A DNA stretch of 64,000 nucleotides from an uncultured Methanomassiliicoccales archaeon (GCA_963695345.1 OY968769.1:2432001-2496000); one strand, 5' to 3'. Counted from the stretch's first letter, positions 1-44,609 are shown. Numbers and translations are program-made. Notes: generated by a model from the letters alone, not told the origin.

Positions 1-1
1 C

Positions 2-1021
2 TCAAAGAGGTCGATTAGCATTGCCATAATTGGGCTTTTGTTAATTCCAACCTTGTTTCAGATGACTCTAGTATGTTCAGGAGAGGGCCAGTTTCTATTT
101 TCGGAGGATTTCGAATCATATTCTGGTGGATATTGCCCATCGGAATTCGAATTGAGAGGTACTGGAGCGGGTGTGAGTCGTCAAGTGGTCACTGAGAACT
201 ATGCCCATAGTGGTTATAGGTCATTCCAGATGCAAGGGGAGGCTGGGTCGGTTGTAAGCGTTGATCGACAATTCGTAAGCCCCAGCAATGAGAATTTGAT
301 AACTGCCCAGATCATGTCAGAAGATTACACTTACTCAAAGAATTCGGGGGGTTATTATAACACAAATATTGGAATTGGTTTCTCTTCCGTTAATGATACA
401 AAAATATTCGGATGTATATGGTTTGGCGATGATGGGAACATATACTTCGACGATGGCGAAAGTAGTATCACATTGAAGGCTTTCAACGCCTACAGTTGGT
501 ATAAATGTGATGTGTATCTCAATTCTACGAGTAATCGTGTAACTGCCTGGATTGACGACATACTTCTTGGCACAATGGACATACAACCAGAGAAACAAAT
601 TGATTGTGTTTCCATCATCGCTGGTGAATCTGGGGTCACCAGCTATATTGATGATCTCACATTATATGCATTTATCAGCAACATCAGCACCAATCATCAA
701 TCTGTTACTGATGCAAGTAATCTCTATCCCATCGTAATGATACCAATCGTGGCGTTGCTGATCGGAGTTCCAGGTCTTCTCTTGCTCCTGGAAGTAAGAT
801 CGTTCAATTCAATGCCCAAAAAGAACCTTAAGATTGAGGAAATACTAAAAGCGATTGGATTGGGATCTCCATTACTATCAATCGGTCTAGTATTGATCTT
901 GAACCATCGAACTTTTGGTGATCAGTATGGAGATATGATGATAATTGGAGGAGTTGTTACCTTGATCATAACCCTTATGATAGTTACTCATATCGTCATT
1001 CGATGGGAACATGAAGTCTAA
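2..1021 (+). CDS. Secreted/membrane protein with a concanavalin/LamG-like beta-rich domain and about 3 C-terminal TM helices (5' end outside the window)
   Basis: The frame is open from the window edge (SKRSISIAIIGLLLIP, signal-peptide-like). Motifs FSEDFESY...WYKCDV...YIDDL, then hydrophobic helices. AT-rich DNA. Confidence 0.6.
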   Translation, partial: SKRSISIAIIGLLLIPTLFQMTLVCSGEGQFLFSEDFESYSGGYCPSEFELRGTGAGVSRQVVTENYAHSGYRSFQMQGEAGSVVSVDRQFVSPSNENLITAQIMSEDYTYSKNSGGYYNTNIGIGFSSVNDTKIFGCIWFGDDGNIYFDDGESSITLKAFNAYSWYKCDVYLNSTSNRVTAWIDDILLGTMDIQPEKQIDCVSIIAGESGVTSYIDDLTLYAFISNISTNHQSVTDASNLYPIVMIPIVALLIGVPGLLLLLEVRSFNSMPKKNLKIEEILKAIGLGSPLLSIGLVLILNHRTFGDQYGDMMIIGGVVTLIITLMIVTHIVIRWEHEV

Positions 1022-1197
1022 TAGTATGTTGACCTGTTCGAAGACATCTTTCCAAAGACCTCGACCATGAATCCCAGCCAAAATCGAGAATAAGTCGGAT
1101 GTTTGAGATCGGCTATGAAAGATGAGCTGGACAAGTTATCAATTATCTTTCCTCAATAGATTTAATAATTATTCAGACCTAAATCCTATAAGAGGAC

Positions 1198-2565
1198 ATG
1201 AATGAACTCAAGCGGGCAGTGGGTTTTCCCAAGCTACTGATCTATGCCATTGGCGTGATCTTCGGAGCAGGTATCTACGCAATCATAGGGGAAGCAGCGG
1301 GAATCGCCGGACCTAGCCTCTGGCTTTCCTTTCTGCTAGCTGCTTTGGTCGCCTCTCTCACCGGCTTGAGCTATGCCGAGCTGGCCTCAATCAAGCCAAC
1401 CACGGCTTCTGAGTATCACTACGTCAAGCAAAGTTTCAACAAGCGATTTGCCTTTTTGATTGGCTGGATCCTTAATATCGTCAACACCATTGCGATCGCC
1501 ACGGTCGCCGTTGGCTTTTCTAGCTATTTCGTGGCTCTGTTCTTTCCGGGGGATTTGGGAACCGTTCTATTCAGTTCTTCTTTTCTGACCATTACCCCGG
1601 CGGTCTTCATAGCGATAATGGCCATCCTTGCGATGGCCTTGATCAACTACACTGGGATCGAGCAGTCAGCTTCTATCAATGTCGTGCTCACATTGGTAGA
1701 GACTGCGGGGTTGCTATTGATATTAGCGGTCGGTCTTGTTTACTTCGGAAACGGCGGAGCAGCCCCTAATTTGCTTGAGATGCCATTTGGATTCTCAGGT
1801 ATGTTCGGGGCTGTCGCCCTGGTTTTCTTTGCATACATCGGATTTGAAGGTCTGGTCAATCTCGGGGAGGAGGTTATTGAGCCTAAAAAGAGCATACCGA
1901 AGGCTATCGTTTATTCTTTGATCATAACAACCGTCGTGTACGTGTTGTTAGCGGTCGTAGCCATTAGCGTCGTTCCGTGGAATGAACTGGGTTCTTCCCC
2001 TGAGCCATTGACGGCTGTGGCAGAGGTTGTTCTAGGTTCGGAAGCAGGTGTTTTGCTTTCCTTCATAGCCTTGTTCGCGACCATCAACACCGTTCTTATA
2101 ATGATAACGGCCAACTCTCGTTTCTTGTATGGTATGGCAAAGGACAAGATCCTACCTTCTTTCCTGATAAAAGTAAGTGAGAAACGTAGGACTCCTTTCA
2201 ATGCAATAATCGTCGTTGCCACTGTCGGCTGCTTGTTCGTTCTGGTAAAAGATATCGGAACGCTTGCTGAGATGACCACACTAGGGATTTTTGTTGTTTT
2301 TGCAATGATAAATGCTTCTTTGATTAAGATGAGGATCAAGGATGACCTTCCGGAAGACCGGTTCAAGAGCCCGGTTAACATCGGCAAGTTCCCTTTGTTG
2401 GCTTTTTTTGGTCTTGTTTCCTGCATTTGGATGATTGGGACCTTTCTCATAAAACTCACTCCACAGGGGGTTTCGGTTGATTTTTCGAGCCCTGCTCTTA
2501 TTTTTTTAGTAATTGAAATGATATCTGGCTTTATTGCCTACGAAATATTGAAGGAAAAATCGTGA
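1198..2565 (+). CDS. APC-family amino acid permease
   Basis: GVIFGAGIY (TM1), SYAELAS and FFAYIGFE (TM6) motifs; about 12 TM helices. Confidence 0.92.
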   Translation: MNELKRAVGFPKLLIYAIGVIFGAGIYAIIGEAAGIAGPSLWLSFLLAALVASLTGLSYAELASIKPTTASEYHYVKQSFNKRFAFLIGWILNIVNTIAIATVAVGFSSYFVALFFPGDLGTVLFSSSFLTITPAVFIAIMAILAMALINYTGIEQSASINVVLTLVETAGLLLILAVGLVYFGNGGAAPNLLEMPFGFSGMFGAVALVFFAYIGFEGLVNLGEEVIEPKKSIPKAIVYSLIITTVVYVLLAVVAISVVPWNELGSSPEPLTAVAEVVLGSEAGVLLSFIALFATINTVLIMITANSRFLYGMAKDKILPSFLIKVSEKRRTPFNAIIVVATVGCLFVLVKDIGTLAEMTTLGIFVVFAMINASLIKMRIKDDLPEDRFKSPVNIGKFPLLAFFGLVSCIWMIGTFLIKLTPQGVSVDFSSPALIFLVIEMISGFIAYEILKEKS

Positions 2566-2589
2566 GGAAGCATTCTGGATCTCCACCAT

Positions 2590-2957
2590 CACGTTAATTT
2601 TTTGAACTTTGAAGGGGAGTTCCTGTCCTGGGTCGCGTTCGTGACACGGTTCGGGAACAGCTGAATTTCTGTCGAGCGGCCAGCTGTCCCTCCCTTCAGG
2701 GAACTCGATTCGGATATCGTGCTGCTCCAGGTCGAGGTCTCGGATGCGGCTCATGTGAATATCTGGAAGGCGTCTCACGGTCACTAAATATGGCGTGAAT
2801 GCCTCCCGGATCATTTATCTGCGCCAATCGATATCAAATTCGCTGAGGCCTCGAGCATCTTCTGCAGGTTCTTATCCTTGAAGGTGCGGATCGTTTCATC
2901 AATCTCCTCAGGCATCCTGAACCCTTTGGGTTTCAGCTCTTCCCCAATGACAATCAT
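2590..2957 (-). pseudogene. Degenerate tyrosine recombinase (integrase) fragment
   Basis: The minus strand reads PEEIDETIRTFKDKNLQKMLEAS...stop/shift...YLVTVRRLPDIHMSRIRDLDLEQHDIRIEFPEGRDSW. This resembles the TGLRxxE..L...DLD....I....PKG segment of integrases, with the catalytic residues decayed. Confidence 0.4.
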
Positions 2958-3013
2958 GATATACTCGTCAAGTCCAATTGAAATGGATGATTTTTTGGAG
3001 GAGAGTGTAAAAC

Positions 3014-3799
3014 ATGGTAAAATTTGCTGACGTTCCAGATGAACAAAAGTTCACCAAATTGAGGCGTTTCAACCTGATCGCAGGTTTCTTGCACCTCATT
3101 CAGGCGATGGTAATGCTTGTGATCGCTAACTATGCCGTGAAGATGTACTTCACCACTTCATATTACGATGCGACGAACGGATTTCCTCCTACCATTGCTT
3201 CAAACCCCAGTCAGTTCTTCTCCGTACCGCTCGGTCCCATGGTTGCGGCGTTCCTGATAATGTCTGCCATCGCGCATTTCTGTGTATCGACGTTCGGTTA
3301 TAGCTGGTATGTAAAGAACCTCAAGATGAACATCAACAAGGCGAGATGGTTCGAATATGCGGTCTCCTCTTCGTTCATGTTGATCGTCATCGCCTGGCTA
3401 TGCGGCATGTGGGACTTCGTCTCCATAATGCTGCTGTTCTCTCTGAATGCCTGCATGAACCTGTTCGGTTACATGATGGAGCTGCATAACCAGACAACGG
3501 AAAAGACCAATTGGACCTCCTTCATATTCGGTTGCTTCGCCGGTCTGGTCCCCTGGATCGCCTTGATGATGTACTTCACTGGCGTAAGGGGAGGAAGTCC
3601 TCCGCTATTCGTATATGGAATCATAATATCCATTGCCTTCTTCTTCAACATCTTCGCGGTGAACATGCTGCTCCAGTACAGGAAGAAGGGGAAGTTCAAG
3701 GACTACCTTTATGGCGAGTACCTATACATCGTCCTGAGCTTGGTGGCTAAAACTGCCTTGGCATGGCAAGTGTTTGCCGGTACCTTGCGCGGTGGTTGA
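3014..3799 (+). CDS. Heliorhodopsin (HeR)
   Basis: 7 TM helices; LRRFNL..GFLHLIQ, SAIAH, RWFEYAVSSS (counterion Glu) and LSLVAKTALAW (retinal Schiff-base Lys in the SLVAK motif). Confidence 0.95.
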   Translation: MVKFADVPDEQKFTKLRRFNLIAGFLHLIQAMVMLVIANYAVKMYFTTSYYDATNGFPPTIASNPSQFFSVPLGPMVAAFLIMSAIAHFCVSTFGYSWYVKNLKMNINKARWFEYAVSSSFMLIVIAWLCGMWDFVSIMLLFSLNACMNLFGYMMELHNQTTEKTNWTSFIFGCFAGLVPWIALMMYFTGVRGGSPPLFVYGIIISIAFFFNIFAVNMLLQYRKKGKFKDYLYGEYLYIVLSLVAKTALAWQVFAGTLRGG

Positions 3800-3805
3800 A
3801 AACCT

Positions 3806-3824
3806 CTTTCATCCTTTTTTTATT
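3806..3824 (+). terminator. Archaeal oligo-T terminator after the heliorhodopsin gene
   Basis: ctttcatcctttttttatt directly after the stop codon. Confidence 0.5.
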
Positions 3825-4097
3825 CCGGCTGGTAACGGTCAATTCGACCGAAGCTGGCCAATTTTTATTCATCCAGGATCGAGACTGCTCCATGACCGCC
3901 GCATATTGGTAGGTGTTTTTTCTTCCACGTTTTTTTAACCGCCCATCTTTCAGAAGCTGAATGAATATCCTATTCAAGATAAAACGGGATGTTTCTGGCT
4001 CCGGGCATAGCAATTTCTGTGACAAGGTCAGTGCGCGTTTAAGTCCGACTGAGAAGCGTCGTTCGATTCAAATATCATAAGAAAGCTAAAGCACTAA

Positions 4098-5390
4098 ATG
4101 CGATGCGAAAAGGGCTCTCCTTGGATAATGGAGATGGACAATGATCTGCGTTTTCCCGTGCTGGACCATGACCTCGAGGTGGATGTGGTCATCGTGGGAG
4201 GGGGGATTGCAGGCATGTCCACCGCCTACTACCTAGCGCAAGGGTCCGAACTTCGGGTCGCAGTGCTGGAAAAGAACCGGATCGGCCAAGGCTCTAGCGG
4301 CCGCAACGCAGGGCAGGGTTTGGCCGTTCTGGAGAAAAGCTTCGCCGACCTCATCAAGGATCACGATGGAGAACTTATCGCGGATATTCTGAACCAGCTG
4401 GAATCAGGCCATAAGCTCCTACGTGAGCTGTGCCAGGAGGTAGGCCATCGACCCGAGCCGATAGAGGGCGTGGTCTGGACTGGCCTCTCTGGCATCGAAG
4501 AGGTCAACGGCGCCTTGATCGAGCTGGAGCTGCGTCAAAGGTTCAAAGCGCCCTTACAATCACTATTTGTGGCGGAAGAGATCGTAGGGGGGCTACAAAT
4601 CCACTCCTCAATTAAGGACCTGGTGTCGACGGAGAAGGCTCGGCGGCTGCAGGAGGTGCTACGCACTAAGGATGACTATCTGGCCGCCTTCGCCTCCCCG
4701 GTCTCGCTGGTCAACAGCGGGAAGCTCTGTCAGTCCGTCGCCAGATATCTCATGCGCGAGCACTTCGGACGAATCGCTATCTTCGAAGGCAGCGCCGTAG
4801 AGGGGATCGATGGAGGGCCTGGACTCAGGGCACGGCTCGGAAGAAACAGCGTATCCGCGAGGGCGGTGGTGCTCTGTACCAACGGCTATCCGCTACCGCG
4901 TATTTCATCTGGCATGTTTCAGAAATCCACCGCCTCGCTCAAGCAGTATCTGGCATCCATGGTGGCATACGAACCCGCGGACAGACGGAGACCGGAGGCT
5001 TTCATCTATTACCATGAGGATGGTGACCCGCGCGAGGAGCCTTATTTCTACTTCACCCGAAGGCCTTTCGACGTGACCGGAAAAGATCTGATCGCAGTCG
5101 GAGGCCCCCAATTGCAGGTCGTAGGAGACCTAGATCAGGAGGCGGAGCTGCCGGAAGGAGTCTACGGTCGAATCGACGAATTCATCAAACGTTCTTCCCT
5201 CGACCCTCTGATGAACAGCAAGGCGAGGTGCTGGAATGGGCTGATGGCCTACACATCGGACAGTCTCAGATTGGTCGGGCCCGATCCTGAGGTGAAAGGT
5301 CTATGGTATAACCTCGGCTGCAACGGCGTAGGCTTGCTGCCCTCCTTGGTATCGGGGCGAAAGTTAGCAAGGCAGCTGGAATATCTTTAA
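4098..5390 (+). CDS. FAD-dependent oxidoreductase (DadA/PuuB-like, DAO family)
   Basis: VDVVIVGGGIAG Rossmann motif, GSSGRNAG, C-terminal LGCNGVG. Confidence 0.85.
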   Translation: MRCEKGSPWIMEMDNDLRFPVLDHDLEVDVVIVGGGIAGMSTAYYLAQGSELRVAVLEKNRIGQGSSGRNAGQGLAVLEKSFADLIKDHDGELIADILNQLESGHKLLRELCQEVGHRPEPIEGVVWTGLSGIEEVNGALIELELRQRFKAPLQSLFVAEEIVGGLQIHSSIKDLVSTEKARRLQEVLRTKDDYLAAFASPVSLVNSGKLCQSVARYLMREHFGRIAIFEGSAVEGIDGGPGLRARLGRNSVSARAVVLCTNGYPLPRISSGMFQKSTASLKQYLASMVAYEPADRRRPEAFIYYHEDGDPREEPYFYFTRRPFDVTGKDLIAVGGPQLQVVGDLDQEAELPEGVYGRIDEFIKRSSLDPLMNSKARCWNGLMAYTSDSLRLVGPDPEVKGLWYNLGCNGVGLLPSLVSGRKLARQLEYL

Positions 5391-6123: not shown

Positions 6124-8478
6124 GATCTTCTCCACCCGTACCTGCCCGCTGTACCCATCGACCACGATGATGCTACCCTCCGGTATGCTCATGGCGTCCT
6201 TCACCGATACGACAGCCGGTATTCCACACTCGCGAGCCACAATGGATGAGTGAGACAGCATACCTCCCGATTCCGATAGGACCGCTCCCGCCTTAGCGAA
6301 AATGCTGCTCCAGCTTACATCGCTGAACGGTATCACGATGACGTCACCCTTTTGCACCGAAGGGAAGTCAGCCAAGCCCCGCACCATCCTGGCCGGACCT
6401 CTATAATAACCACCCGAGCTCGCTATGCCGCGCAGGGATAGCGCATCAAAGCTTTGGAACGGTGGCTCTTCCTCCCCGAAGATCAGCTCGGGTAGACAGA
6501 CATTTTCGCTCCTGGACATCTCCAATTTTCGAGAGACGATCAGTGTCTTAAGGTCGTCGCAAGCGTCCATCTTCAGCGCTTTCCGCAGTTCCTCCAAGTA
6601 AAGATAGAAGATATCATCTGGTCGCTCTAGCAGACCTCTTTGCGATAACCTTGATCCGAGGGACAGGAAGTAGCGGCGGAATATGCCATACCCCTTGGTA
6701 TAGGTGGAGCTCATTCGCTCTCGAAGGTCAGAAAACAATGCCGCCCTCCGCCCGATGCCCTCAACATAAGTTCTGGACATCAATGACAGGTGCAGCTCTG
6801 AAAGCTCCTTCTTTTTATCCCTCGACCTGTCTTGAGGCTCCGCAATCATGATCAGCCTCCAGACCACCTCGGGTTGCTCCCGCCACGGCGACCTGCTGAA
6901 ATCGTTCCCGCTCTCACTGTAATGGCCGAACCTCTGGATGTGCGCATCGAACTCCTGGCGCAAAGCGGTTGCCGTCGGCTCATCGCTCAGACCCGTGTAT
7001 CCGATCTTGGCCAGTCTATCTTTGGCACCTTGGTCCAATGAGTCATACAGGTTCCTCATTCGCTCGATACCTTCGTGTGGGTATGTGTTCACAGAGCGCT
7101 CGTTCATTGAGAGCCATTCCACCTTGTCCACCGGCACCTCATATCGCTTCAGCGTTCTCTTAGCCATGCGATCGAACATCATAGCGAAGAGGATGGATAG
7201 AATGTTGTAGTAGACCGCTCTGCGATCATACTGGAATAACGAGTCTACCTTGGCTATGAGCTCAGTCTCCGAAAGGCCGGACAGCTCCTCCGCCACCAAC
7301 ATGTCGTAGTAGGGTTCAGCCTGTTCGATGAAGTCGTTGACCTCGTGCCTTACGTTCAACTTCTTCAGGGCCCAAAATGACATTCGCGGTGTCAGAGCGA
7401 GCATTTTGGGGTTAATTCTGAAGCGCAGCCCTTTCTGCCCAGACATCATCATCTCCAACGACTCCCGTGGTAGCCCCATCTGCTGGAAGACCTTGCCCGC
7501 CTCGCTCATGTTGAAGTAGGCGCGATAGTGGAAAGGTTTGGCCAAGGTCAGTGGATCCATGTCCCTGACCCCGGTCAGCTCCTTGAAAATGCGCACCCAG
7601 GCACCGTTCACCAGAGGGATGTTAACGCTCCAGACCAGGGGCTTAATCTGCCCTGGGAGCATCTCTTTGGCCAGGCGATTGGAATACATGGTCTTGCGCT
7701 GCACCTCATGCACCGGACGCACCTGCACCCACCACACCTTACTACCATCGAACACCCATTCCATGTCCAGGTCGAACTTCAACTGATCCCTGAACTGTTT
7801 GGTCTCCTTGGCCACCTGAGCGAGTAGCTCGGCGGGGATTCCATCCTCCGTTCCCGTGACCACGCCGTCCTCCCAGCGAGCTGTATCAGTACCTTTCTGT
7901 ACTAGCAGCTCCCCGCTCCCCCGCACCGCTTCCACCACCGGTCTGGAGATACCTGTGATCGGGTTGAGGCTGAACGATACGCCCGACACCTCTTGTCGGA
8001 CCATCTCCTGGATCACCACGGCCATCAACACCTTTTGCTCTGACTTCCCGGACCGGTCCATGTAGCTTATGACATCATCTTCCTGTGATGAGCCCCAGAC
8101 CTTGAGGATGGCATCGAGCAATGCTTCGGTCCCGGTGACATTCAATATCGACCGGAACTGCCCCGCGAAGGAAACGGAACTTAGGTCCTCAACGTTGGCG
8201 CTTGACCTCACTGCGAACGCAGTTTTCTTAGGCAGCTTCCATTCTAGCTCTGCCCTCAGTTGAGCCATCGTACCTTTTCGGTCTCTTAATTGATCTTCAT
8301 AAGCGGGTATTATAACGACCCAGCCCCTTGGCACAGGGGCACCCAGCTGTATCAGAGTGGCTAGACCTGTCGCCTTGGACCCGACCAAGGACCGATCGAT
8401 GCCTGGCTTAATCTCGATTAGTATCTCATTGCCAACTGCGGTCGGCGAATCCTTCCCATTGAGCATACGAGAGGGCAC
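6118..8478 (-). CDS. PEP-utilising/dikinase-family enzyme with RPH/PigC-type architecture
   Basis: N-terminal ATP-grasp (VGSKA, AVRSSANVED..SFAGQ, IQEMV, DMEW..WVQVRP), central helical domain, C-terminal phospho-His swivel domain (GGMLSHSSIVARECGIP). Confidence 0.88.
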   Translation of the reverse strand: MPSRMLNGKDSPTAVGNEILIEIKPGIDRSLVGSKATGLATLIQLGAPVPRGWVVIIPAYEDQLRDRKGTMAQLRAELEWKLPKKTAFAVRSSANVEDLSSVSFAGQFRSILNVTGTEALLDAILKVWGSSQEDDVISYMDRSGKSEQKVLMAVVIQEMVRQEVSGVSFSLNPITGISRPVVEAVRGSGELLVQKGTDTARWEDGVVTGTEDGIPAELLAQVAKETKQFRDQLKFDLDMEWVFDGSKVWWVQVRPVHEVQRKTMYSNRLAKEMLPGQIKPLVWSVNIPLVNGAWVRIFKELTGVRDMDPLTLAKPFHYRAYFNMSEAGKVFQQMGLPRESLEMMMSGQKGLRFRINPKMLALTPRMSFWALKKLNVRHEVNDFIEQAEPYYDMLVAEELSGLSETELIAKVDSLFQYDRRAVYYNILSILFAMMFDRMAKRTLKRYEVPVDKVEWLSMNERSVNTYPHEGIERMRNLYDSLDQGAKDRLAKIGYTGLSDEPTATALRQEFDAHIQRFGHYSESGNDFSRSPWREQPEVVWRLIMIAEPQDRSRDKKKELSELHLSLMSRTYVEGIGRRAALFSDLRERMSSTYTKGYGIFRRYFLSLGSRLSQRGLLERPDDIFYLYLEELRKALKMDACDDLKTLIVSRKLEMSRSENVCLPELIFGEEEPPFQSFDALSLRGIASSGGYYRGPARMVRGLADFPSVQKGDVIVIPFSDVSWSSIFAKAGAVLSESGGMLSHSSIVARECGIPAVVSVKDAMSIPEGSIIVVDGYSGQVRVEKIS

Positions 8479-8700
8479 GCCTTGATACTAGTCATCTTTA
8501 GAAATAAAATGATTCACTTGTCTGGTCTTAAAAGAACCCATGGCATGTCGTCCAATTCTTTGATGATATTCCTTATGAAAATCGCTCGACTGAATTAGAG
8601 TCCAGATAGTCACCAACCAGAATCACTATTGATAATCAAATAGGAAGTCTAATGATATGCAAAAGGCCTTCAAAAATTAGGGTTTGAATAGGTGTCAATC

Positions 8701-8868
8701 ATGGTCCATATGAAGGTCGGTTGCAAGTTCTGCCATAACACGGGAAAGGTAAGTCAGGTAACATCGAACGGAACCAGAACGGAGATCTGTTTCATGTGCC
8801 ATGGACGAGGCTTCACCGTAATGACGATCCGTCAGAACCAGTGCGCCGCGGTCGAAACGACCGGCTAA
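8701..8868 (+). CDS. 55-aa DnaJ-type zinc-finger microprotein (not in the ORF track)
   Basis: MVHMKVGCKFCHNTGKV...ICFMCHGRGF has two CxxCxxxG repeats. AGGTG RBS upstream; hairpin at 8897-8915 downstream. Confidence 0.7.
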   Translation: MVHMKVGCKFCHNTGKVSQVTSNGTRTEICFMCHGRGFTVMTIRQNQCAAVETTG

Positions 8869-34216: not shown

Positions 34217-36309
34217 CCGCCGGCCTTAGCATGTCCATGAGCTCGTCCAGGTCATGCGTCGGTTTGAGACAGCTGCCGTTCTGGCACAGATAGGCGGTCG
34301 GTCTTCCCGTCGATAGGGACCTTGTCCCTCAGGCTGGAGAGGTTCTTGCACTCGGCCAGTTTCTTTTCCCGAACCGGATGGAGCATCACGATCGAATAGG
34401 GAAGGTAGATGGAATTGACCGCGTCTATCATCGCCTTTGTCCGTTTATCGCCCGGGTCGCCCGCTATGACCAGTACCTGGGCTGGCTTCAGCATCATCCT
34501 CAGCCCCATGATGAAGAAGGACAATGCGTCGGGGACCTTGGACAGGTAGAAATCGTAGTACCTGGCGGAGCTAGTCGCCGCCTCGAGCAGCTTCTGGTCG
34601 TCGATCATCGAGGAAAGCAAGGCAAGGTCATAGGCCATGACCGAATTGGCCGAAGGCACGGCACCGTCGGATATCTCCTTGCTCAGATAGCACCAGGTCT
34701 TCCTTGGCCATGGAGTTGTAGAAGCCTCCCCTTTCGTCGCCGAACAGATCGATGGTCCTCCTCGTGTAATCGACCGCCCGGTTCAGGTAACGTACCTCGA
34801 AGGTGGCCTGGTAAAGCTCCAGCAGCCCCCAGATGTAGTAGGAATGGTCGGAGAGCATGCCGTTGACCCTCGCCTCCCCGTCACGGTACATATGGAACAG
34901 GCCGCCCTCCGGTGACGCCAGGAACCCTTCGATCGCATCCACCGCCCGCTTGGCCGCCTGCAGGTAACGTTCCTGCCCGAAGGCCCTTCCCGCTTTGGCC
35001 AAGGCGGCGATCATGAGGCCGTTCCAATCGGTCAGGACCTTGTCGTCACGGGCCGGCCGGATCCGCAGCTCGCGGACCGCCTTCAGCCTTTCCACGCATG
35101 TTTCCAGGTAGTCGGTCAGCTCGGCCGGGCTCATGTCGAACTTGGCCGCCAGGGTGGCAATGGTCGGCGGTCAGGTGCAGGAGGTTGCGATCGATGTCGC
35201 CCTCCCTGCCAGAACCGATGGTTCCCTCGGGATGCACATCGAAGCATTCCATGAAGATCTCGGGCCTCAGGTCCTTCAGCACATCCTCGATCTCTTCGTA
35301 GGTCCAGGTGTAGAACTTTCCTTCCACGCCCTCGCTGTCGGCATCCTCCGAGGCACAGAAGGCCCCCCTGCTCGGAAACCAGGTCCTTGAGGACATACTC
35401 GATCGTCGTCCTCTGCGACCTTCTTGAAATCGTCCTTGCCGGTGGCCTGATATGCCTCCACGTACGCGATGCAGATCAATGCCTGGTCATAGAGCATCTT
35501 TTCGAAATGAGGCATGATCCATTGTTCGTCGGTGGAATATCGGTGGAATCCCCCTCCGATATGGTCATGGATGCCCCCCAAGCATCATGTTGGTGAGGGT
35601 CCAGTCGGCCATTCTCAGGGCTTCGGCATCACCGGTGTCATGCCAATAGCGGAGAAGGAAGATGGATTTGTGCGGGATCGGGAACTTGGGCGACTTCTCG
35701 AATCCTCCGATACTTCTCCTCGTACGTCTTCTTCAAACCCCTAAAGGCATCATCCAGATAGTTGACGCTCGGCTCGCCCGGCCTGACGATCTCCATGGCG
35801 GCGATGTCCTTGACGATGGTCGAGGTGATGGATTGGATCTCTCCCTGCTCTTCCCTCCAGGCGGCGGAGATGGCATTCAGTACGGTGATTATATCCGACA
35901 TTCCGAACTGTCCGTTCCTGCGGAATGTAGGTCGCGGCGAAGAAAGGTATCTTCTCCGGCGTCATTACGATGGTCAGCGGCCAACCTCCGCCTCCGGTCA
36001 TGGCCTGGCATGCCTTCATGTAAAGCTCATCGATGTCCGGCCGCTCCTCCCGGTCGACCTTGATCGCCACATATTCCGCGTTGAGCGTTCTCGCGACCTC
36101 CTCGTCCTCGAACGACTCCCTCTCCATGACGTGACACCAATGGCAGGCCGAATAGCCTATGGAAAGGAAGATCGGCCTTCCGGTCCGCTTCGCCTCCGAG
36201 AAGGCCTCCTCACCCCAAGGATACCAATCCACCGGGTTGTGGGAGTGCATGATGAGATATGGGCTCTTCTCGTTCACAAATGGTTGGAGTGTTGCGGCTT
36301 CGGCTCCAT
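34197..36309 (-). CDS. Thioredoxin domain plus six-hairpin glycosidase-like protein (YyaL/SSP411, DUF255); several frameshifts
   Basis: [76 protein letters not shown]. Confidence 0.9.
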
Positions 36310-36931
36310 GGACTACCTTCAGGGGAAGATTCATCAAATGAATAAATTAACCTATGTATGCTGGATGATAGAAAGAGTGATTGTTCTAGGTCAAATAATC
36401 TAAAAAGGTAGAGGTCACGTGGGACCTCATACCTCGGTTTAGAAGGCGTTTGGAGTTGGTTGGGCCGGTGGCTCACCGCTCCTATGCGATCCTCTCCTCC
36501 TAAGAAAGTCCGCTTTTCGTTACCTCGAACGATTGCCAGTCTATCTTCGTCGGCTGGCTAACAAAGCCAATGCGTTGGTCGATATTTATGCTTTTCCGGC
36601 TTTCTTGGGTCGATTGGATTATGTTGACGTGTTTTTATTTGAAATATTTTCAGATCTGGCTTGTGAATCTGTGGATGGATTAACCATCCCGTTATTCGAT
36701 AATTATAGTTACTATAATATTAATGTGTGCATACGAACGAAGAAAAACGATCAGAGCATTTGGACGATATCCATTGGTTGTTCAAGGCATATTTTCCAGA
36801 TGCGCGGTCCTGACATGGCCTCGGCCGCTCAGATCAGGAGTCAATCCCTCTCCGATCGTCCGCCTGATCTTCTTCAATCTCGCGACCGCATGAAGGGGAT
36901 GTGCAGAGATGGACGCGGCTCGGTCATGAGC

Positions 36932-38386
36932 TCAGCGGGTCACTCTGTCAATCAGTTGCTTCTCCTTGTTATAGACCGAGATCTCCAGAGGCATCTGACC
37001 GACTGCGAAGTGGGTGGCGCACCCGAAGCAGGGGTCGTAGGCCCGGAAGGCCATCTCCACCTTGTTCAGTATGTTCTCGTCCACCTTTCCTCCGTGTATC
37101 AGGCCCTTGGCGGCATCGCGGATGCTCATGCAGATCGCCGGATAGTTGTTGGTGGTGGCGACGATCATGTTGACGTTCCTGCACCAGGGCGTTCTCGTCC
37201 AGCCGGTAGTGGTGGATGAGCGTTCCTCTGGCCGCCTCGACGATGCCGACACCCTCGCCTGGCTCTCCCGGCTTGTTCCGTACGTCGGTGCTGGTGATCT
37301 CCGGGTCGCTCGCCAGTTCGACGGCGCGTTCGGCCGCGTACAGCAGCTCGATGAGCCGGGCCCAGTGGAAGACCAGGGTGCCATGCGCCGGCTTGCCCAG
37401 CATCGCGAACATCCGCTCGTACTCCTGCCTGAGCCAGGGGTGTGGCCATCCCGTCCGCGGCGTTCAGCCGGCCAGGGGACCGACCCTGTAGATGCCATTG
37501 TCCGGTCCGTCGGTGAAGCCGTTCCACCCGACCTTCCGCAGGAAGGGGAACTTGGAGTAGGTCCACTCCTCCGAGCGCTCCTCGATATGCTCGGCGTAGT
37601 CGGCCGCCCCGAACCGGGAGAACTCCTTGCCTGAAGGGTCGACCACCCGGACCTCGCCATCGTAGAAGTTGACGCGGTTCTTCGCGTCCACCATTCCCAT
37701 GTAATAGGTCCTCATGGTGTAGGCGTCGCTCTTGATCATGTCCAGGTACTTCGGGTTGTCCAGCACCAGGTCGTGGAACAGCTGCAGCGTGAACTGGGCG
37801 AAGTTCACCGAGGACTTGGCCATCTCCAGTATGGCGAGTCGGATCTCCTCGCTGAGCGGCTTGCTCATCCCGCCGGGCAGTCCGCTGACCGGATGGGTGG
37901 CCTTACCGCCGATGATCTCGGTGATCTTCTGGCCATAGGCGCGGTGCTTGATCACCTCCTTGGCGACGTCCAGCCCCGCCTTCTCGATCACGCCCAGGAT
38001 GTTGCGCTTCTCCGCCGGCGCATCCGGTCCGACGATGAAGTCCGGTCCGCCCAGATAGTAGAAGTGCAGCGTATGGTCGTAGATGATGTAGCCCATGTAC
38101 TGGAGCTCCCTCAGCTTCTTCGCGGCCGAAGGCGGAGTCGACCTGGAACGCCGCGTCCAAGGCCTTGACCGAGGCGTAGATGGTGGGCCACCGGGCACAC
38201 CCCGCATATCCTGGTGGTGATGATGGGCATGAGCTCGGCTGGGCGGCCGACGCAGAAGGCCTCGAAGCCCCTGAGCTCAGGGACCTTGAGGTATGCGTTC
38301 TCCACCTCACCATCGTCGTTGAGGAAGATGGACACGCTGCCGTGCCCTTCCAGCCTGGTGATCGGGTCGATGTTGATCTCCTTCAT
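36932..38386 (-). CDS. mvhA: [NiFe]-hydrogenase large subunit, group 3c (MvhA-like); frameshifted
   Basis: IDPITRLEGHG, L1 motif RICGVCPVAH, EAARGTLIHHY, L2 motif RAYDPCFGCATH with a cleavable C-terminal tail. Confidence 0.92.
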
Positions 38387-39361
38387 TCTTTCATCACCTT
38401 CCTTTGCAGGATGGACGCCGGCAGGCTGTACATGTAGAATATGCCCACCGGGTCCTTGATCTGCGATATGAGCTTGGTCGACTTCCTCGTCAGTGTACGT
38501 TCCCGGCTCCTTGTCCAGGTTCAGGATGGAGGCCAGTGCCGTGATCATTCCCGCTCCCATGTCGGGCTGGTTGGGCGCCGCACCGCCGCAGCCGGTGCAG
38601 GGCATGTCCACCTTGAGGCACTGGGCTCCGCAGCCGCTGCGGGTGGCCATCCCCATGCATATGATGCCCTGCTCCATCAGGCAGCGCTCCGGTTCCGGGG
38701 TGATCTCGTACACCCGGTGGATGCTGGAGATCTTCTTGTTCTCCCGCTTGCGGGGGCATTGGTCGCACACCGCCGGCAACGGCGCCAGGACCGAGCCCTT
38801 GGGAGGCAGTTCGTTCTTCACGATAGCTTCCAACGCCTTGTTGATGAGAACGACCGGCGGCGGGCAGCCAGGCAGGAAGTAGTCGACATCGACGGTCTGG
38901 TCCAGCGTCCTGACGGTATCGTAGAACATCGGAATGTCGAAGCGTACCCTCCTTCACGGCGGTCTCGGCTCGGGATAATGCGCCGTCGTCCGTGAACTTC
39001 GTTGCGAGTAGACCTGCTCCAGTATGCCCTTGGCATCGCTGAGGTTCGCCAGTCCGGGCACGGAACCCTCGTTGGCGCATGATCCGAAGGCGACCAGGGT
39101 CTGGGATTTGGAGCGGAGCAGCTTCGCCATGTGCTCCTGCTCGCTGTTCCGTATCGAGCCGTTGAAGAACGTGATGTCGATGTGACCGTCCGGCATCGCC
39201 TCGACGTCCTTGTACTTGACGTCCATCGCCACCGGCCAGAAGACGATGTCCACCGACCTTGACGACATCGAGAATCGTCTCGTTGATGTCCAGGACGGCT
39301 ATCTCGCAGCCGCCGCAGCTGGCCGCCCAGTAGAACGCTACTCCTCAGTTTCCGGTCGATG
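38383..39361 (-). CDS. mvhG: [NiFe]-hydrogenase small subunit (MvhG-like); frameshifted
   Basis: FYWAASCGGCE, AFGSCA, PGCPP, CDQCPR, CLMEQGIICMG.ATRSGCGAQC..PCTGCGG. ATGA overlap with mvhA. Confidence 0.9.
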
Positions 39362-39362
39362 T

Positions 39363-40805
39363 TCACTCCCCCTCTTGTGCTCTCGTTCATGAGATATTCG
39401 TGCATCGCCTTGGCAGCACGCTTCCCTGCCCCCATGGCACTGATGACGGTGGCAGCACCGGTGGCCACGTCACCGCCGGCGAACACGCCCTTCAGGTTGG
39501 TCCGTCCCTCTGCATCGACGATGATGGTGCCGTTTCGCGGATTGGTCACCAGCCCCTCGGTGGTGCGCTGGATGATGGGGTTCGGCGTCTGGCCGATGGC
39601 GACGATGACGGTATCGGCCGGGATCTCGAAATCCGAACAGACAATGGGCTTGACACCCTGCCTGCCCCTGTTCGTCCGGTTCTGTCAGCTCCATGCAGGT
39701 GCATCTCATGGACTTGACCCAGCCCTTCTCGTCACCGTAGAACTCGATCGGGGCGCTGAGGAACTTGCACATCAACCCTTCCTCCTCGGCGTTCTCGATC
39801 TCCTCCCTCCTGGCTGGCAGCTCGTTCCGCGAACGCCGGTAGTTCAGGCAGACCGTCGCCCCTAGCCTCATGGATATGCGGGCGCAGTCCATGGCCACGT
39901 TCCCTCCGCCGATGACGACCACGTGCTTGCCGATGCGGATCGGGGTGTCCTTTTCCGGGAAGTCGTAGGCCTTCATCAGGTTGACCCGGATGAGGAACTC
40001 GTTGGCCGAGTAGATGCCGCCCAGGTTCTCACCGGGGCATCCGGTCCACTGCGGGAGGCCGGCCCCGCTGCCGATGAATATCGCATCGTAACCGTTCTCC
40101 AACAGTTCCGGGATGGTGTGTATCCTCCCGATGAGATTGCCCAGTCGCAGGTCCACCCCCAGCTTCTGCACGTACTCGATCTCCTTCTGGACGATCTCCT
40201 TGGGCAGACGGAACTCCGGGATGCCATAGCTGAGCACACCGCCGGCCACATGCAGCGCCTCGAACAACGTCACCTCATGACCTAGTCTTGCCAGGTCGGA
40301 TGCTGCCGTCAATCCCGCCGGGCCGGCACCGATGACCGCCACCTTCTTTCCGGTTGGAGGCACCTTCTCCGGGATCTGCACTCCATGCTCCCTCTCCCAG
40401 TCGGCCAGGAACCTCTCGAGGCGTCCGATGTTGACCGGATCGCCCTTCTTGCCCTTAATGCACTTCATCTGGCACTGCTCCTCCTGCGGGCAGACGCGTC
40501 CGCAGACGGCGGGAAGGGCGTTCTTTGACTTTATGATCGCAATGCCTTCGGCGTACTTTCCCTCAAGGATGCAGTCGATGAACTCCGGGATAGGCACGTC
40601 CACGGGGCAGCCTTTCCGGCATTGGGGGTTCTTGCACTTGCAGGCACCGGGCCGCCTCTTTCAGGGCCATCTCCTCGGTGTAGCCAAGAGCGACCTCGCT
40701 GAAGTTCTTGACCCGCTCGTCAGGCTCCTGCCTCGGCATCGGCACGTCCTCGTCCGTCGTAGCCCGGGCGCGTCCTCTCTTCTTCTCAGGCTCAGTACCG
40801 TTCAC
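39363..40805 (-). CDS. nfnB: NfnB/SudA (GltD-like) FAD/NADPH flavoprotein with 2 [4Fe-4S] clusters; frameshifted
   Basis: NFSEVALGY..EAARCL.C....C..GCP, CGRVCPQEEQC, GAGPAG, YGIPEFRLPK, GGGNVAMD, YRRSR, FAGGDVATGAATVI. Confidence 0.88.
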
Positions 40806-41638
40806 ACTTGCAGCCTCCGTTCGTTTCCCAAAGCATGGAACTCAACCTCTCTTCCGGGAGCATGGTGCGCTGGCGTTTGATGAGCTCGTCGAAGTTGGTC
40901 TCGTGCCCGTCGAACTCGGGGCCATCCACGCAACCGAACATCATCTTGTCGCCCACGGTCACACGGCAGACACCGCACATGCCCATGCCATCGATCATGA
41001 TCGGGGTCAAGGTCACAATGGTCGGGATGCCGTAGGGGCTGGGTCATCTCGCTCACCTCTTTCATCATCACCACCGGTCCCATGACCACGCACCGGTCGA
41101 ATCTCTCCGTCTGGAGGAGATCGTTCAGGAAAGCCAATCCCATTTTCCCCGCAGTCCCATCGTCCGAGGCGATGTGGACCTGATCGCTGTTTGCCATGGC
41201 CTCCTCCTTCATGAAAAGCAGATCGCTGCTCCTGCAGCCAAGGACCGTAGTCACATGGTTTCCTGCCGCCTTCAAGGCCTTGGCCTGAAGCAGCAACGGG
41301 GCGATCATTATGCTTCCGCCCACGCACAGCACCTTCCCGAAAGTTCCTGATCTCGGAAGGATTGCCCAACGGTCCGGTGACGTTGAACAGGCAGTCGCCC
41401 TGGTTGAACGTGCCCAGCTCCTTGGTGGTCTTGCCGACCTCATGGAAGGCGAATGAAACCGTTCCTTTCTCCGCGTCGTAATCACAGATGGTAAGGGGTA
41501 CTCTCTCCCCTCCCGTTTTCGCTATGACGATCAGGAATTGCCCCGGCTGAGCTTTGGCGGCGATCTCCGGGGCCTCGACCTCGAACAGGGTCATCTTGTA
41601 GCTGAGCGCCTTTTGGACAATATCTTGTATGTCATCAT
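40792..41638 (-). CDS. nfnA: NfnA/SudB (FNR-family FAD plus [2Fe-2S] subunit); frameshifted
   Basis: AQPGQF, GERVPLTI, GPLG, MIDGMGMCGVCRV...CVDGPEFDGH. Confidence 0.88.
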
Positions 41639-42850
41639 TCCGCCTCCCTTTGTAGCGGTATCTTTGGCATACGGCATGGTTGCGATCCTCTCGAAGAAAG
41701 CCTCGAACTTCTGGCTGAATTCGCCCTCACATCTCGGCGAGAGCTCGTGTATCTCGAACCGATCGAGCAATCCTGCTTCTTCAGAAAGGCTGTGAGGACC
41801 TCGAGCTGCCTTTCTGAGGTGTCTCTTCCCTGCTGGAGCTTGCAGTCCTTCGCCGAGCAGACTACCGCCATGACGCCGTCGAAGCCCTGCTCGAAGGCGC
41901 TAACCACCTGCACCGGGTCCATTCCCTTGAAGCAAGGTACCTCCATGACAAGAGCGTTCTTCCCTTGGAGCATCTTCTCCGGATCGTCCAGAGCTGAGTA
42001 CTCCGACCACTGGCAGCTGAGGATCAAGATGGCAGGTCTGCCGTCTCTGGCCCTTATCCTCTGTGCCGCGGCTCCATAGGATGCGATGAGATCTTTGAAC
42101 TCATATCCTTTGACGTGGATGGCGTTGTGCGGACAGACCAGCTGACAGGCACCACAGCCCATGCATTTCTCGGCATCCGTGGAAGGCGTGGAGAACGGTT
42201 CTGACTTGATGGCTCCGTAGGGGCATACGAACACGCATTTGCCGCAACCGACGCACTCACTGTTGTTCCTGACCACCTTTCGAGAATACTTCACGACCTT
42301 CAGCGCATCATCGGGATAGCCGAGCTGCTTGATGACCGCCTCGCCAAGTAGCATGCGCCTTGTCCCGATCCCGGTGCCTTCCTTCATACGGCAGAATCCG
42401 TCATGGCACTGGATAGAGATGATGTTCTTCACGCCCGACTTCAGGGCATTGAAAATGAAATCCGTCGGGATCCTTCCGGCGCATGGGATGCGCAAGGGCA
42501 GATAACCCTCCACCTTCAGGCCCCTGTCCGGCAAGGATGTCCTCGACCTCGCCGCTGCTGGGCGAGTTGCCCCTGCACATCATAACCAGCGTATCCGCGC
42601 ATAGGTTCTTTCGTGCCGATATGACGTAATCGAGCAGGTCCCCATAATCGTAGTATGACATCTCGATGGCCGAGACGGGACAGGCACTATAGCATATCCC
42701 GCAGACCTGACACTTTTGGATGTCTATGCTCAGTTTACCGCCATCGGGCTGACGGTCAATGGCCTCGAACGGACAAAGCGAGAAGCAAACCGTGCATCGG
42801 CTACAGAGGTCTTGGTCAATTCTAACGGCTGCAAGGCAGTTATCGTTCAT
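41635..42850 (-). CDS. Tandem (2x[4Fe-4S] ferredoxin + MvhD-like) x2 iron-sulfur protein; frameshifted
   Basis: Four CxxCxxCxxxCP motifs and two MvhD-like units (MMC..RIPCAGR..QCHDGFC; LSCQWS..VPCFKG..VCSAKDC). Confidence 0.82.
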
Positions 42851-43222
42851 ACCTGATATCCCCCTCAGGGTCGAAGAAATTCTGTGGCCGGGACATGTAA
42901 TCCAGACCGTAGAGGGCGCATAGACATCAACTTATTTATTGGATAGCTTTGGTCCATCCGCCGTTCACTGCAAAAGAGTCCTCGCGGAATCTTTACAGTA
43001 GCAGAGGTTGGATAATGGGTAGATTATATAATGAGTACTATCGAAGGTTCGTGAATGGTTTAGGTTACATTATTATGTGTCGAAATATTTCCTGGATATG
43101 GTAATAAAAATATATGCGTGGCTAAAATTAAATAGACGCATAAACATTAATTATATGAAAATTGAGACATCTATCGCGTAATTGCCGTAAGGAATCATTC
43201 AAAGCACCGTTTTTGAATAGAT

Positions 43223-43231
43223 ATTATATAA
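43223..43231 (+). promoter_or_regulatory. Probable TATA box for gdhA
   Basis: ATTATATAA about 40 bp upstream of the ATG. A second palindromic ATTATATAAT lies at 43023-43032. Confidence 0.5.
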
Positions 43232-43269
43232 GAAAAATTCCATTCCGAATCTTGTAGGAGCGTCATTAG

Positions 43270-44609
<1,340 letters not shown>

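Follow-up and report, generated by a model that had tools for sequence, protein, structure and literature searches.

Where do Methanomassiliicoccales methanogens obtain their reduced nicotinamide adenine dinucleotide phosphate (NADPH), and what does an Mvh-type [NiFe]-hydrogenase do when it is encoded together with NfnAB and without heterodisulfide reductase (Hdr) genes? Both questions are raised by positions 36932-42850 of a 64,000-nucleotide stretch of DNA from an uncultured Methanomassiliicoccales archaeon (GCA_963695345.1 OY968769.1:2432001-2496000), which as a whole is called the window below (G000:C1:2432001-2496000) and belongs to a source genome consisting of a single contig of 2.56 Mb, scored 85% complete. 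Methanogens normally make NADPH from reduced coenzyme F420. The NADPH source of these methanogens is in question because CofD was not found in six genomes (five relatives and the source genome) and Fno (TIGR01915) was under its cut-off in all five relatives searched, with three control genomes above the cut-off in each case, an outcome that would fit an F420-independent route to NADPH. Here, we describe a conserved operon in which an iron-sulfur adaptor, homologues of NfnA and NfnB, and a second Mvh-type hydrogenase are encoded together, and we suggest, tentatively, that its products form an H2-dependent NADP+ reductase.

Gene content and conservation of the operon

The minus strand of 36932-42850 carries, in this order, a gene with a tandem repeat of ferredoxin and MvhD domains (FdMvhD2, hereafter the adaptor) and nfnA-like, nfnB-like, mvhG-like and mvhA-like genes. 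Pfam searches with reading-frame fragments of the window recovered Fer4 and FlpD/MvhD (twice), Fer4_20 with Pyr_redox_2, and NiFeSe_Hases, and tblastn with the intact FdMvhD2, NfnA, NfnB, MvhG and MvhA of G007, a complete genome of the same genus whose locus L013 is used as the reference operon, placed the five proteins contiguously on the window from 42850 down to 36935. This bears out the five genes and their order as proposed in the first-pass annotation, with the two ferredoxin-MvhD units belonging to one 403-residue protein in the relatives, hence five genes. The overlapping or abutting start and stop codons that it also described are not cleanly readable in the window, the copy of which is frameshifted, but each of the four internal junctions in G007 is a 4-base overlap, including that between nfnA (L013 6558-7391) and nfnB (7388-8824), immediately upstream of which nfnA lies. 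The intact adaptor gene of G007 occupies L013 5350-6561, and the operon encodes the five proteins at the lengths given in Table 1 together with a HycI-type maturation protease.

The claimed lack of hdrABC likewise holds: there is no Hdr gene in the operon, none of the 14 CCG-domain (HdrB/HdrD) matches of the genome falls within the 64-kb window, and the nearest HdrA is encoded about 1.8 Mb away, in the canonical locus. A canonical hdrA-mvhD-mvhG-mvhA locus is present in the source genome (G000:C1:652000-670000) as well as in G007, G014 and G015, so that the operon does not hold the sole mvhAG copy. Because the same genomes possess this locus, the Nfn-linked hydrogenase is, judging by gene content, a second, dedicated copy.

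Close orthologues of the NfnB-like protein (81-91% identity) are encoded in 17 of the 24 other genomes of the same family and in none of the 16 genomes searched from the remaining families of the order. Another four members of the family possess an NfnAB that stands alone and is 56-60% identical. The complete operon was found in six individually checked genomes, which represent five genera. In two loci from two genera (L016 and L018), nfnAB lies directly beside the glutamate dehydrogenase gene gdhA, without the adaptor and without the hydrogenase. To place the adaptor more broadly, species-representative genomes were scanned with two exact peptide patterns; 80 of 108 matches were kept, 21 of them in Methanomassiliicoccales-type and 59 in Bathyarchaeia-labelled loci, and the counts, which describe what was found rather than the full distribution, are limited to loci with room for the gene in question. 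The adaptor is followed by nfnA at 20/20 Methanomassiliicoccales-type and 55/55 Bathyarchaeia-labelled loci, and then by nfnB at 20/20 and 52/52, respectively, so the three genes stay together in a second phylum as well. The position of the hydrogenase differs between the two groups. At the Methanomassiliicoccales-type loci, mvhG lies within 150 nucleotides of nfnB in 19/19 cases, consistent with the synteny that the first-pass annotation had set as a check, and is neither displaced 3.1-5.5 kb downstream (0/15) nor absent from the flank (0/15). Among the Bathyarchaeia-labelled loci, the corresponding counts are 1/49, 6/45 and 39/45. The hydrogenase maturation genes hypF and hypD, in turn, occur in the flank of 29/45 and 24/45 Bathyarchaeia-labelled loci, respectively, and of 0/15 Methanomassiliicoccales-type loci in both cases. 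In all five of the checked Bathyarchaeal genomes without a linked hydrogenase, an orthologue of the hydrogenase (71-74% identity) is encoded elsewhere.

The immediate neighbours differ as well: gdhA is found upstream of the operon in 14 of the 21 Methanomassiliicoccales loci, and 53 of the 59 Bathyarchaeia-labelled ones have a true CxxC thioredoxin reductase gene ahead of the adaptor. One 756-residue frame that appeared to fuse the thioredoxin reductase to the adaptor (L040 7960-10230) was rejected, the joint being translated intergenic spacer; the two genes are separate in L059, L092 and L097, and the fusion is probably a sequencing or assembly error.

Hydrogenase, adaptor and flavoprotein subunits

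The large hydrogenase subunit of G007 (L013 9804-11255) has VhuA as its best NCBIfam model, at 436 bits under a cut-off of 800, and the small subunit scores 198.5 bits with VhuG, under a cut-off of 450; their identities to the canonical copies in the same genome are 51.5% and 47%, respectively. Against the PDB, the large subunit gives 391 bits with 7t2r_D, 383 with 5odc_F, 343 with 5xf9_D (Hox), approximately 120-150 with Frh and 112-115 with sulfhydrogenase. It carries the N-terminal motif RICGVCPVAHH and the C-terminal motif DPCFGCATH followed by about 24 residues, that is, the Ni-Fe motif and cleavable extension of group 3c. The other hallmark of that group, MvhD together with HdrABC, is lacking: the operon encodes MvhD in no other form than the two domains within the fused adaptor, and it has no Hdr gene. 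Assignment to the group 3b sulfhydrogenases was rejected, given model scores of 135-198 bits against cut-offs of 700-880, the low scores with sulfhydrogenase structures and a partner that is a GltD-type NfnB rather than AsrA-like. In a large-subunit tree of 28 rows, the 17 Nfn-linked Methanomassiliicoccales sequences (support 100/100) group with a Bathyarchaeal-type copy (L101), and the canonical MvhA sequences from these genomes fall elsewhere; the tree has no outside reference groups and a long-branch outgroup (L110), and is used only for this separation. The outgroup itself is a 424-residue [NiFe]-hydrogenase large subunit (L110, G019:C6:476000-485000, at 4041-5315), 28% identical to MvhA and preceded by genes for 649- and 292-residue proteins, which looks like a different group 3 enzyme.

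The adaptor appears suited to carrying electrons. Among 67 orthologues, 23 cysteines never vary and one more is shared by 66 of them, enough for a predicted four [4Fe-4S] and two [2Fe-2S] clusters. In comparisons of the family profile with the PDB, each of the two modules corresponds to HdrA's C-terminal ferredoxin domain with MvhD after it, and an AlphaFold model (predicted local distance difference test score, 80.5) has MvhD (5odc_D) as its best fold match. These are the very pieces that join MvhG to the flavin of HdrA in the solved complex. Furthermore, members of the adaptor family are encoded between mvhA and hdrA in L125 and L131, in the latter between mvhGA and hdrA. Given the matches of its modules, its conserved cysteines and these intermediate gene positions, the adaptor fits the role of a wire from a hydrogenase to a flavoprotein, as far as sequence and fold comparisons can tell. 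Complex prediction with NfnA, NfnB and adaptor residues 1-192 (the N-terminal half only, with 67-row alignments) scored 0.00 in both runs and counts neither for nor against this role.

The adaptor family extends well beyond these operons. A profile search of 1.84 billion representative proteins yielded 59 matches at E <= 1e-30, including about 15 deeply divergent full-length double-module lineages that are 29-48% identical to one another and retain all cysteines. Of 80 metagenome loci carrying one distant member (P0003), 66 have room downstream, where the next gene is MetV-like in 44, nfnA in 18 and hdrA in four. The family thus joins known or proposed units of flavin-based bifurcation, which supports a wiring role in the operon, too; as it serves several types of module, however, the presence of an adaptor alone does not identify its partner. 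For instance, the distant adaptor in L128 (7971-10816) is followed by a MetV-like (PF12225) and a MetF (methylenetetrahydrofolate reductase) gene, and a MetV-like gene follows in 43 other metagenome loci. We take this order to recall the MetFV-HdrABC-MvhD complex of Moorella. A metagenome contig of another kind (L161 2408-13904) carries, in succession, mvhG, mvhA, a gene for a 731-residue fusion, a protease gene, mvhD, a double-module adaptor gene, a MetV-like gene, hypF and hypD. The fusion combines a response-regulator receiver domain, unusual in this setting, with GltD/NfnB-like Fer4_20, Pyr_redox_2 and Fer4 domains, making this another hydrogenase accompanied by an NfnB-like flavoprotein; L166, L171, L175, L180, L186, L194 and L200 are similar.

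The two flavoprotein subunits are clear Nfn homologues. The NfnA-like orthologue scores 347.7 bits with PRK06222 (NCBIfam cut-off 220) and matches 5jca_S (Pyrococcus furiosus NfnI-S, 3.5e-80) and 4ylf_A (Thermotoga maritima NfnA, 1.6e-72); the NfnB-like orthologue, with Pfam domains Fer4_20 and Pyr_redox_2, scores 600 bits with TIGR01316 (cut-off 471.75) and matches 4ylf_B (T. maritima NfnB, 1.1e-159) and 5jca_L (P. furiosus NfnI-L, 2e-150). Across 67/67 sequences, NfnB retains C53, C56, C61, C65, C100, C104, E107, C110 and C114, the NADPH-site residues Y321-R322-R323, R331 and R198, and NfnA retains the flavin adenine dinucleotide (FAD) motif R46-x-P48-L49 and D216, C221, C224 and C236. From the T. 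maritima structure, we take these residues to bind two [4Fe-4S] clusters in NfnB, one with a Glu ligand, and a [2Fe-2S] cluster in NfnA through one Asp and three Cys. NfnB R331 aligns with Arg333 of 5jca_L, and its first cluster cysteine is C53, compared with Cys42 in the P. furiosus protein, that is, its N-terminus is extended. The accessible part of Huang et al. (PMC12221290) ties bifurcating NfnB to three features, namely nfnA upstream, a long N-terminus and an equivalent of PfNfnI-B Arg333 near the bifurcating FAD; all three are present here.

The departure from canonical Nfn lies in the dinucleotide motif of NfnA. It reads GGGVG(I/V)A in T. maritima NfnA and P. furiosus NfnI-S but GG[SG][IV]M(I/V)AP as the consensus of the adaptor-linked proteins, which thus lack the canonical NAD(H)-site motif; for the nfnA-like gene of the operon, the motif is GGSIMIAP in place of GGGVGIA. 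Position 111 is Met in 66 of the 67 aligned orthologues and Leu in the remaining one, and Met recurs in 18/18 adaptor-linked NfnA sequences from independent metagenome loci. By contrast, Gly is kept in the stand-alone NfnA of L018, in the NfnA of L148, where the adaptor gene lies downstream of nfnB instead of upstream, and in 4ylf_A and 5jca_S; the stand-alone NfnA of L016 has another, likewise non-canonical motif. Going by the FNR/PyrK family, we assume that this Gly starts the helix that binds the dinucleotide pyrophosphate, and we infer that NAD(H) binding by the adaptor-linked NfnA is impaired.

Proposed mechanism and its rivals

The reading we favour, as plausible rather than probable, is that of a five-subunit H2-dependent NADP+ reductase with Nfn chemistry in which H2 replaces NADH and is confurcated with reduced ferredoxin, Fd(red). 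In this soluble complex, the Mvh-type [NiFe]-hydrogenase, composed of the MvhA and MvhG paralogues, would oxidize H2 and pass electrons to the dedicated adaptor, with its two repeats of HdrA-type ferredoxin domain and MvhD and the predicted four [4Fe-4S] and two [2Fe-2S] clusters, and from there to NfnAB, where NADP+ would be reduced at the FAD of NfnB. One electron would come from H2 through the adaptor and the [2Fe-2S]/FAD branch of NfnA, and the other from reduced ferredoxin through the two [4Fe-4S] clusters of NfnB, for a net reaction of H2 + Fd(red) + 2 NADP+ -> 2 NADPH. The altered dinucleotide motif of NfnA makes it probable that NAD(H) does not serve as a substrate. The mutual binding of the five proteins, the docking site of the adaptor, the direction of electron flow and the use of ferredoxin as co-substrate are what we infer from the operon. 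In H2-dependent methanogens for which the searches returned neither CofD nor Fno, the likely role would be to supply NADPH for anabolism. Energetics are compatible with ferredoxin as a partner: a Nernst calculation puts the H+/H2 couple near -270 to -300 mV at approximately 1-10 Pa H2, which is too positive for NADP+ alone and adequate when paired with ferredoxin. Such pressures are, we assume, the low in-situ H2 level at which the source organisms reportedly live.

Several observations weigh against this mechanism. The Bathyarchaeial hydrogenase adjoins nfnB in only 1/49 loci, and at each of the three loci read, out of four retrieved, it directly follows hdrC-like and hdrB-like (CCG) genes; because this orthologue lies mostly away from nfnAB and beside such genes, the hydrogenase clade is not Nfn-specific by ancestry. 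The adaptor family is generic, with a MetV-like gene next in 44/66 metagenome loci and hdrA in 4/66, and docking of the adaptor's ferredoxin-like domains where NfnB receives ferredoxin would be just as conceivable. The copy in the window is frameshifted, with its maturation protease gene about 43 kb distant instead of adjacent. The role assigned to the altered site in NfnA is a presumed one, taken from the motif of the FNR/PyrK family. Finally, in P. furiosus NfnII the NAD site is occluded and the enzyme, according to the part of PMC12506544 available to us, has been shown to be non-bifurcating, so that loss of an NAD site need not mean a new third substrate and a linear enzyme becomes a serious rival. 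In such a non-bifurcating H2:NADP+ oxidoreductase, electrons would run from H2 through MvhAG to the adaptor, which would serve NfnB as a tethered ferredoxin at its distal [4Fe-4S], and on through the NfnB clusters and FAD to NADP+, with NfnA structural or vestigial and its NAD site closed; functionally, this would be a group 3b/3d hydrogenase assembled from different parts. The four ferredoxin-type clusters predicted in the adaptor and the Gly-to-Met change, which fits a closed NAD pocket, speak for it, as do the reports, in the portions of these papers at hand, that NfnII with its blocked NAD site is a monofunctional Fd:NADP+ reductase (PMC12506544) and that NfnB subunits alone catalyse Fd:NADP+ reduction (PMC12221290). 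Nevertheless, we consider the linear enzyme, close rival though it is, somewhat unlikely: the cofactor ligands of NfnA are invariant in 67/67 sequences, NfnB keeps the arginine that the accessible part of PMC12221290 ties to bifurcation, and the alignment shows NfnA with a Thr above the flavin rather than the His of NfnII and without the NfnII insertions. By calculation, the linear reaction would also be endergonic at low in-situ H2, the H2 levels being those assumed above. The earlier suggestion that H2 replaces NADH is favoured by the altered NfnA motif, with Gly kept in stand-alone NfnA.

The hydrogenase might, alternatively, be a second input into a larger assembly, in which the adaptor and NfnAB form an NADPH module whose MvhD domains would connect it to HdrA/HdrBC or to some other partner, in the manner of FlxABCD or MetFV-MvhD, with a disulfide acceptor involved and not just H2 and NADP+. 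The Bathyarchaeial mvhGA genes directly after hdrC-like and hdrB-like genes would fit such an arrangement, and so would some trio loci (adaptor, nfnA and nfnB) flanked by genes for an HdrA-MvhD fusion, an HdrC/B-like fusion and an HdrA-like protein, as well as the 48 of 66 metagenome loci in which HdrA or MetV follows an adaptor family member. The Methanomassiliicoccales operon, however, includes no Hdr gene and the 64-kb window no CCG-domain gene, and the genomes own a canonical hdrA-mvhDGA locus with its own MvhD, so we regard this assembly as quite improbable. The Hdr-less Mvh-NfnAB complex of the first-pass annotation is partly supported, by its conserved synteny and by the separate canonical locus; as far as genomes can show, none of the three outcomes named there as contrary to it was encountered. 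The picture is complicated by the hdrC/hdrB-like company of the Bathyarchaeial hydrogenase and by the occurrence of the adaptor family in MetV/MetF and HdrA contexts. Less probable again is the same complex working in reverse, as a redox valve in which NADPH is oxidized and H2 released, possibly with bifurcation to ferredoxin. Both Nfn and the group 3 hydrogenases can run in either direction, and the Bathyarchaeal loci have genes for acyl-CoA synthetase and aldehyde:ferredoxin oxidoreductase around them; the reversed role would suit fermentative Bathyarchaeia more than methanogens. The source genome, by contrast, encodes McrA and the canonical Mvh/Hdr locus, gdhA and the FNR-like neighbour fit a demand for NADPH, and the order is one of H2-consuming methanogens.

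The Bathyarchaeal loci L118, L119 and L120 (genomes G044, G043 and G042) deserve description in their own right. Each carries genes for an ADP-forming acyl-CoA synthetase with a GNAT domain, hdrC-like and hdrB-like (CCG) proteins, MvhG, MvhA, a protease and an aldehyde:ferredoxin oxidoreductase, and the cluster is without an hdrA or mvhD of its own. The MvhD-type partner of this hydrogenase may be the adaptor encoded with nfnAB elsewhere.

Compared with known systems, the confurcating complex that we favour would combine known modules in a new, conserved arrangement with a diagnostic sequence signature. With MvhAGD-HdrABC (PDB 5ODC), it shares paralogous hydrogenase subunits and an adaptor in which the fold of MvhD and HdrA's C-terminal ferredoxin domain recur, but the operon lacks HdrA, HdrB and HdrC, the partner is NfnAB, MvhD is duplicated and ferredoxin-fused, and the acceptor is presumably NADP+, not the heterodisulfide. 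The flavoprotein subunits are full-length homologues of canonical bifurcating NfnAB (1.1e-159 and 3.5e-80), with the nfnA-nfnB order, cluster ligands, NADPH site and Arg333 equivalent kept; they differ from it in the change of GGGVG to GG[SG][IV]M and in the location of their genes between those of an iron-sulfur adaptor and a hydrogenase. P. furiosus NfnII ('Xfn'; PDB 5VJ7) is likewise a homologue of Nfn that makes no use of NAD(H), as would presumably be the case here, and is thought to make biosynthetic NADPH (PMC12506544 and PMC12221290, in the parts available). It differs in being blocked by an extra loop and an Arg, with a His over the flavin, whereas the protein described here lacks the insertions and has a Thr; NfnII, moreover, has no adaptor or hydrogenase partner. 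Group 3b (sulfhydrogenase) and 3d (Hox) hydrogenases share the expected net chemistry of H2 with NAD(P)+, and the 3b gamma subunit is a distant relative of NfnA/PyrK (E 9e-12), but the large subunit scores 112-115 bits with sulfhydrogenase structures against 383-391 with Mvh-type ones, and the diaphorase is a GltD-type NfnB with NfnA rather than AsrA/AsrB-like or NuoEF-like. The best PDB match of the large subunit is NiFe-HydABCSL of Acetomicrobium mobile (7T2R), which we take to be an electron-bifurcating enzyme that couples a soluble NiFe hydrogenase with a bifurcating module of flavoproteins; HydABC (Bfu-type, NAD+) forms this module in place of NfnAB, and an MvhD-type adaptor is absent. 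MetFV-HdrABC-MvhD (Moorella) and FlxABCD-HdrABC also use MvhD as a plug between redox modules, but are centred on HdrA, whereas NfnAB is the sole flavoprotein of this operon. The same difference sets apart the ANME-1 HdrA proteins with an inserted NfnB, although these, as described in the accessible part of PMC9012536, demonstrate that Nfn and Hdr/Mvh parts can be combined.

Frameshifts, the displaced protease and neighbouring genes

Every operon gene in the window is split across two to four reading frames. A nucleotide alignment with the G007 operon (81% identity) contains 44 indels, mostly single-base insertions, with a net gain of 13 bases; in-frame amino-acid identity is 62-99%. The same damage extends beyond the operon: gdhA is in three frames, the canonical hdrA in at least seven pieces, and the canonical mvhA and mvhG in two pieces each. 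For comparison, contigs were drawn from one public DNA run that contains a tenth of the sampled words and mostly represents relatives 85-95% identical, that is, other strains; eight of the 12 listed indels relative to these contigs (16 further ones being unlisted) lie within 4 bases of frame-breaking indels deduced from G007, at 39664, 39380, 39344, 38482, 38177, 38140, 37473 and 37422. Because gdhA and the canonical hdrA/mvh locus are equally broken and the related contigs lack these indels, the operon frameshifts are best read as assembly errors and not as decay, on evidence that is good but, with relatives as the source of the contigs, not final.

The HycI-type protease gene adjoins the operon in relatives, as does, in the genus of the source genome, that of a thioredoxin reductase (TrxR)-type ferredoxin-NADP+ reductase (FNR) homologue. 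In the source genome, an intact protease gene (80% identity) is found at G000:C1:2518001-2518492 beside the TrxR-type FNR homologue (70% identity), the pair occupying G000:C1:2518001-2520062, outside the window and about 43 kb away, which suggests a rearrangement or a misassembly. At about 36500-36930 of the window, after mvhA, where relatives carry the protease gene, there is an AT-rich, apparently non-coding stretch. That all genes are frameshifted, the protease gene is not adjacent and a gap of this kind follows mvhA could also be taken as signs of a decaying pseudogene cluster without function. Yet the frameshift density is equal in gdhA and in the essential canonical hdrA/mvh locus, identity to G007 is 62-99% in frame, the indels are absent from related contigs at eight of the 12 listed positions and the protease is intact elsewhere, all of which make decay of the operon extremely unlikely.

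The features are listed in Table 1. The adaptor gene starts with an ATG at 42850, just downstream of a GGGGG Shine-Dalgarno-like stretch, and the region between this start and gdhA is presumed to be a divergent promoter region.

Table 1. Operon genes and upstream features, with positions counted from the first base of the window; lengths are those of the proteins in relatives, G007 included.
Feature	Position	Strand	Product or content	Length (residues)	Remarks
FdMvhD2 (tandem adaptor)	41639..42850	-	two modules, each a 2x[4Fe-4S] ferredoxin domain + MvhD/FlpD [2Fe-2S] domain	403	frameshifted; 3' end approximate
nfnA-like	40804..41638	-	small Nfn subunit, FAD + [2Fe-2S]	277	frameshifted; coordinates approximate
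nfnB-like	39364..40808	-	large Nfn subunit, 2x[4Fe-4S], FAD, NADPH site	478	frameshifted; coordinates approximate
mvhG-like	38383..39367	-	[NiFe]-hydrogenase small subunit	328	frameshifted; coordinates approximate
mvhA-like	36932..38386	-	[NiFe]-hydrogenase large subunit	483	frameshifted; stop codon ends at 36932
AT-rich intergenic region	42851..43269	.	between the operon and divergent gdhA		several TATA-like boxes, read directly from the sequence
gdhA	43270..44606	+	glutamate dehydrogenase, divergent neighbour		frameshifted, three frames

The neighbours gdhA, the FNR-like gene and, in Bathyarchaeia, the thioredoxin reductase gene would all encode enzymes that use or interconvert NADPH; the gdhA product is a likely NADPH consumer, its cofactor preference being assumed. 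The FNR-like neighbour in G007 (L013 4021-4950, minus strand) encodes a 309-residue protein that was excluded as a thioredoxin reductase, given that the redox-active CxxC is absent and the best PDB matches include TrxR-type ferredoxin-NADP+ reductases (2zbw, 3lzw and 6gas); it represents a possible second route from ferredoxin to NADPH beside the operon. Elsewhere in the window, a frameshifted minus-strand gene at about 35400-36480 has a thioredoxin-like CxxC stretch in its frame translations and resembles, we believe, DUF255/YyaL-type proteins, and positions 1-4000 have a G + C content of 0.44-0.47, compared with 0.55-0.62 across most of the window.

Implications for NADPH supply and Nfn diversity

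No published description of this gene cluster was found in a search of full-text literature, with supplements (where neighbourhood tables may mention it) and subscription journals lying outside the search. We propose, with more reserve than the mechanism itself, that the operon represents an undescribed 'Mvh-Nfn' class of flavin-based confurcating or bifurcating enzymes, namely H2- and ferredoxin-dependent NADP+ reductases, in which the adaptor would take the place of NAD(H) on NfnA, a distinct and widespread NfnA subfamily with the Gly-to-Met change would have co-evolved with the adaptor, and the module, common to Bathyarchaeia and Methanomassiliicoccaceae, would be a source of NADPH for those methanogens whose genomes yielded no CofD or Fno. 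If true, this would enlarge the small set of partners fed by Mvh-type hydrogenases and provide a natural case of Nfn with a protein wire standing in for the NAD(H) branch. It also bears on the purpose of Nfn homologues with a closed NAD site, the third substrate of NfnII being treated as an open question in the available parts of PMC12221290 and PMC12506544. Bathyarchaeia, which are abundant in sediments, carry the trio very often; the part of PMC11631310 accessible to us labels these genes 'sulfide dehydrogenase' and assigns them to sulfur metabolism, a reading that may need revision. For the Methanomassiliicoccaceae without detected CofD and Fno, a hydrogenase hard-wired to NfnAB would, if the proposal is true, answer the question of where their NADPH comes from.

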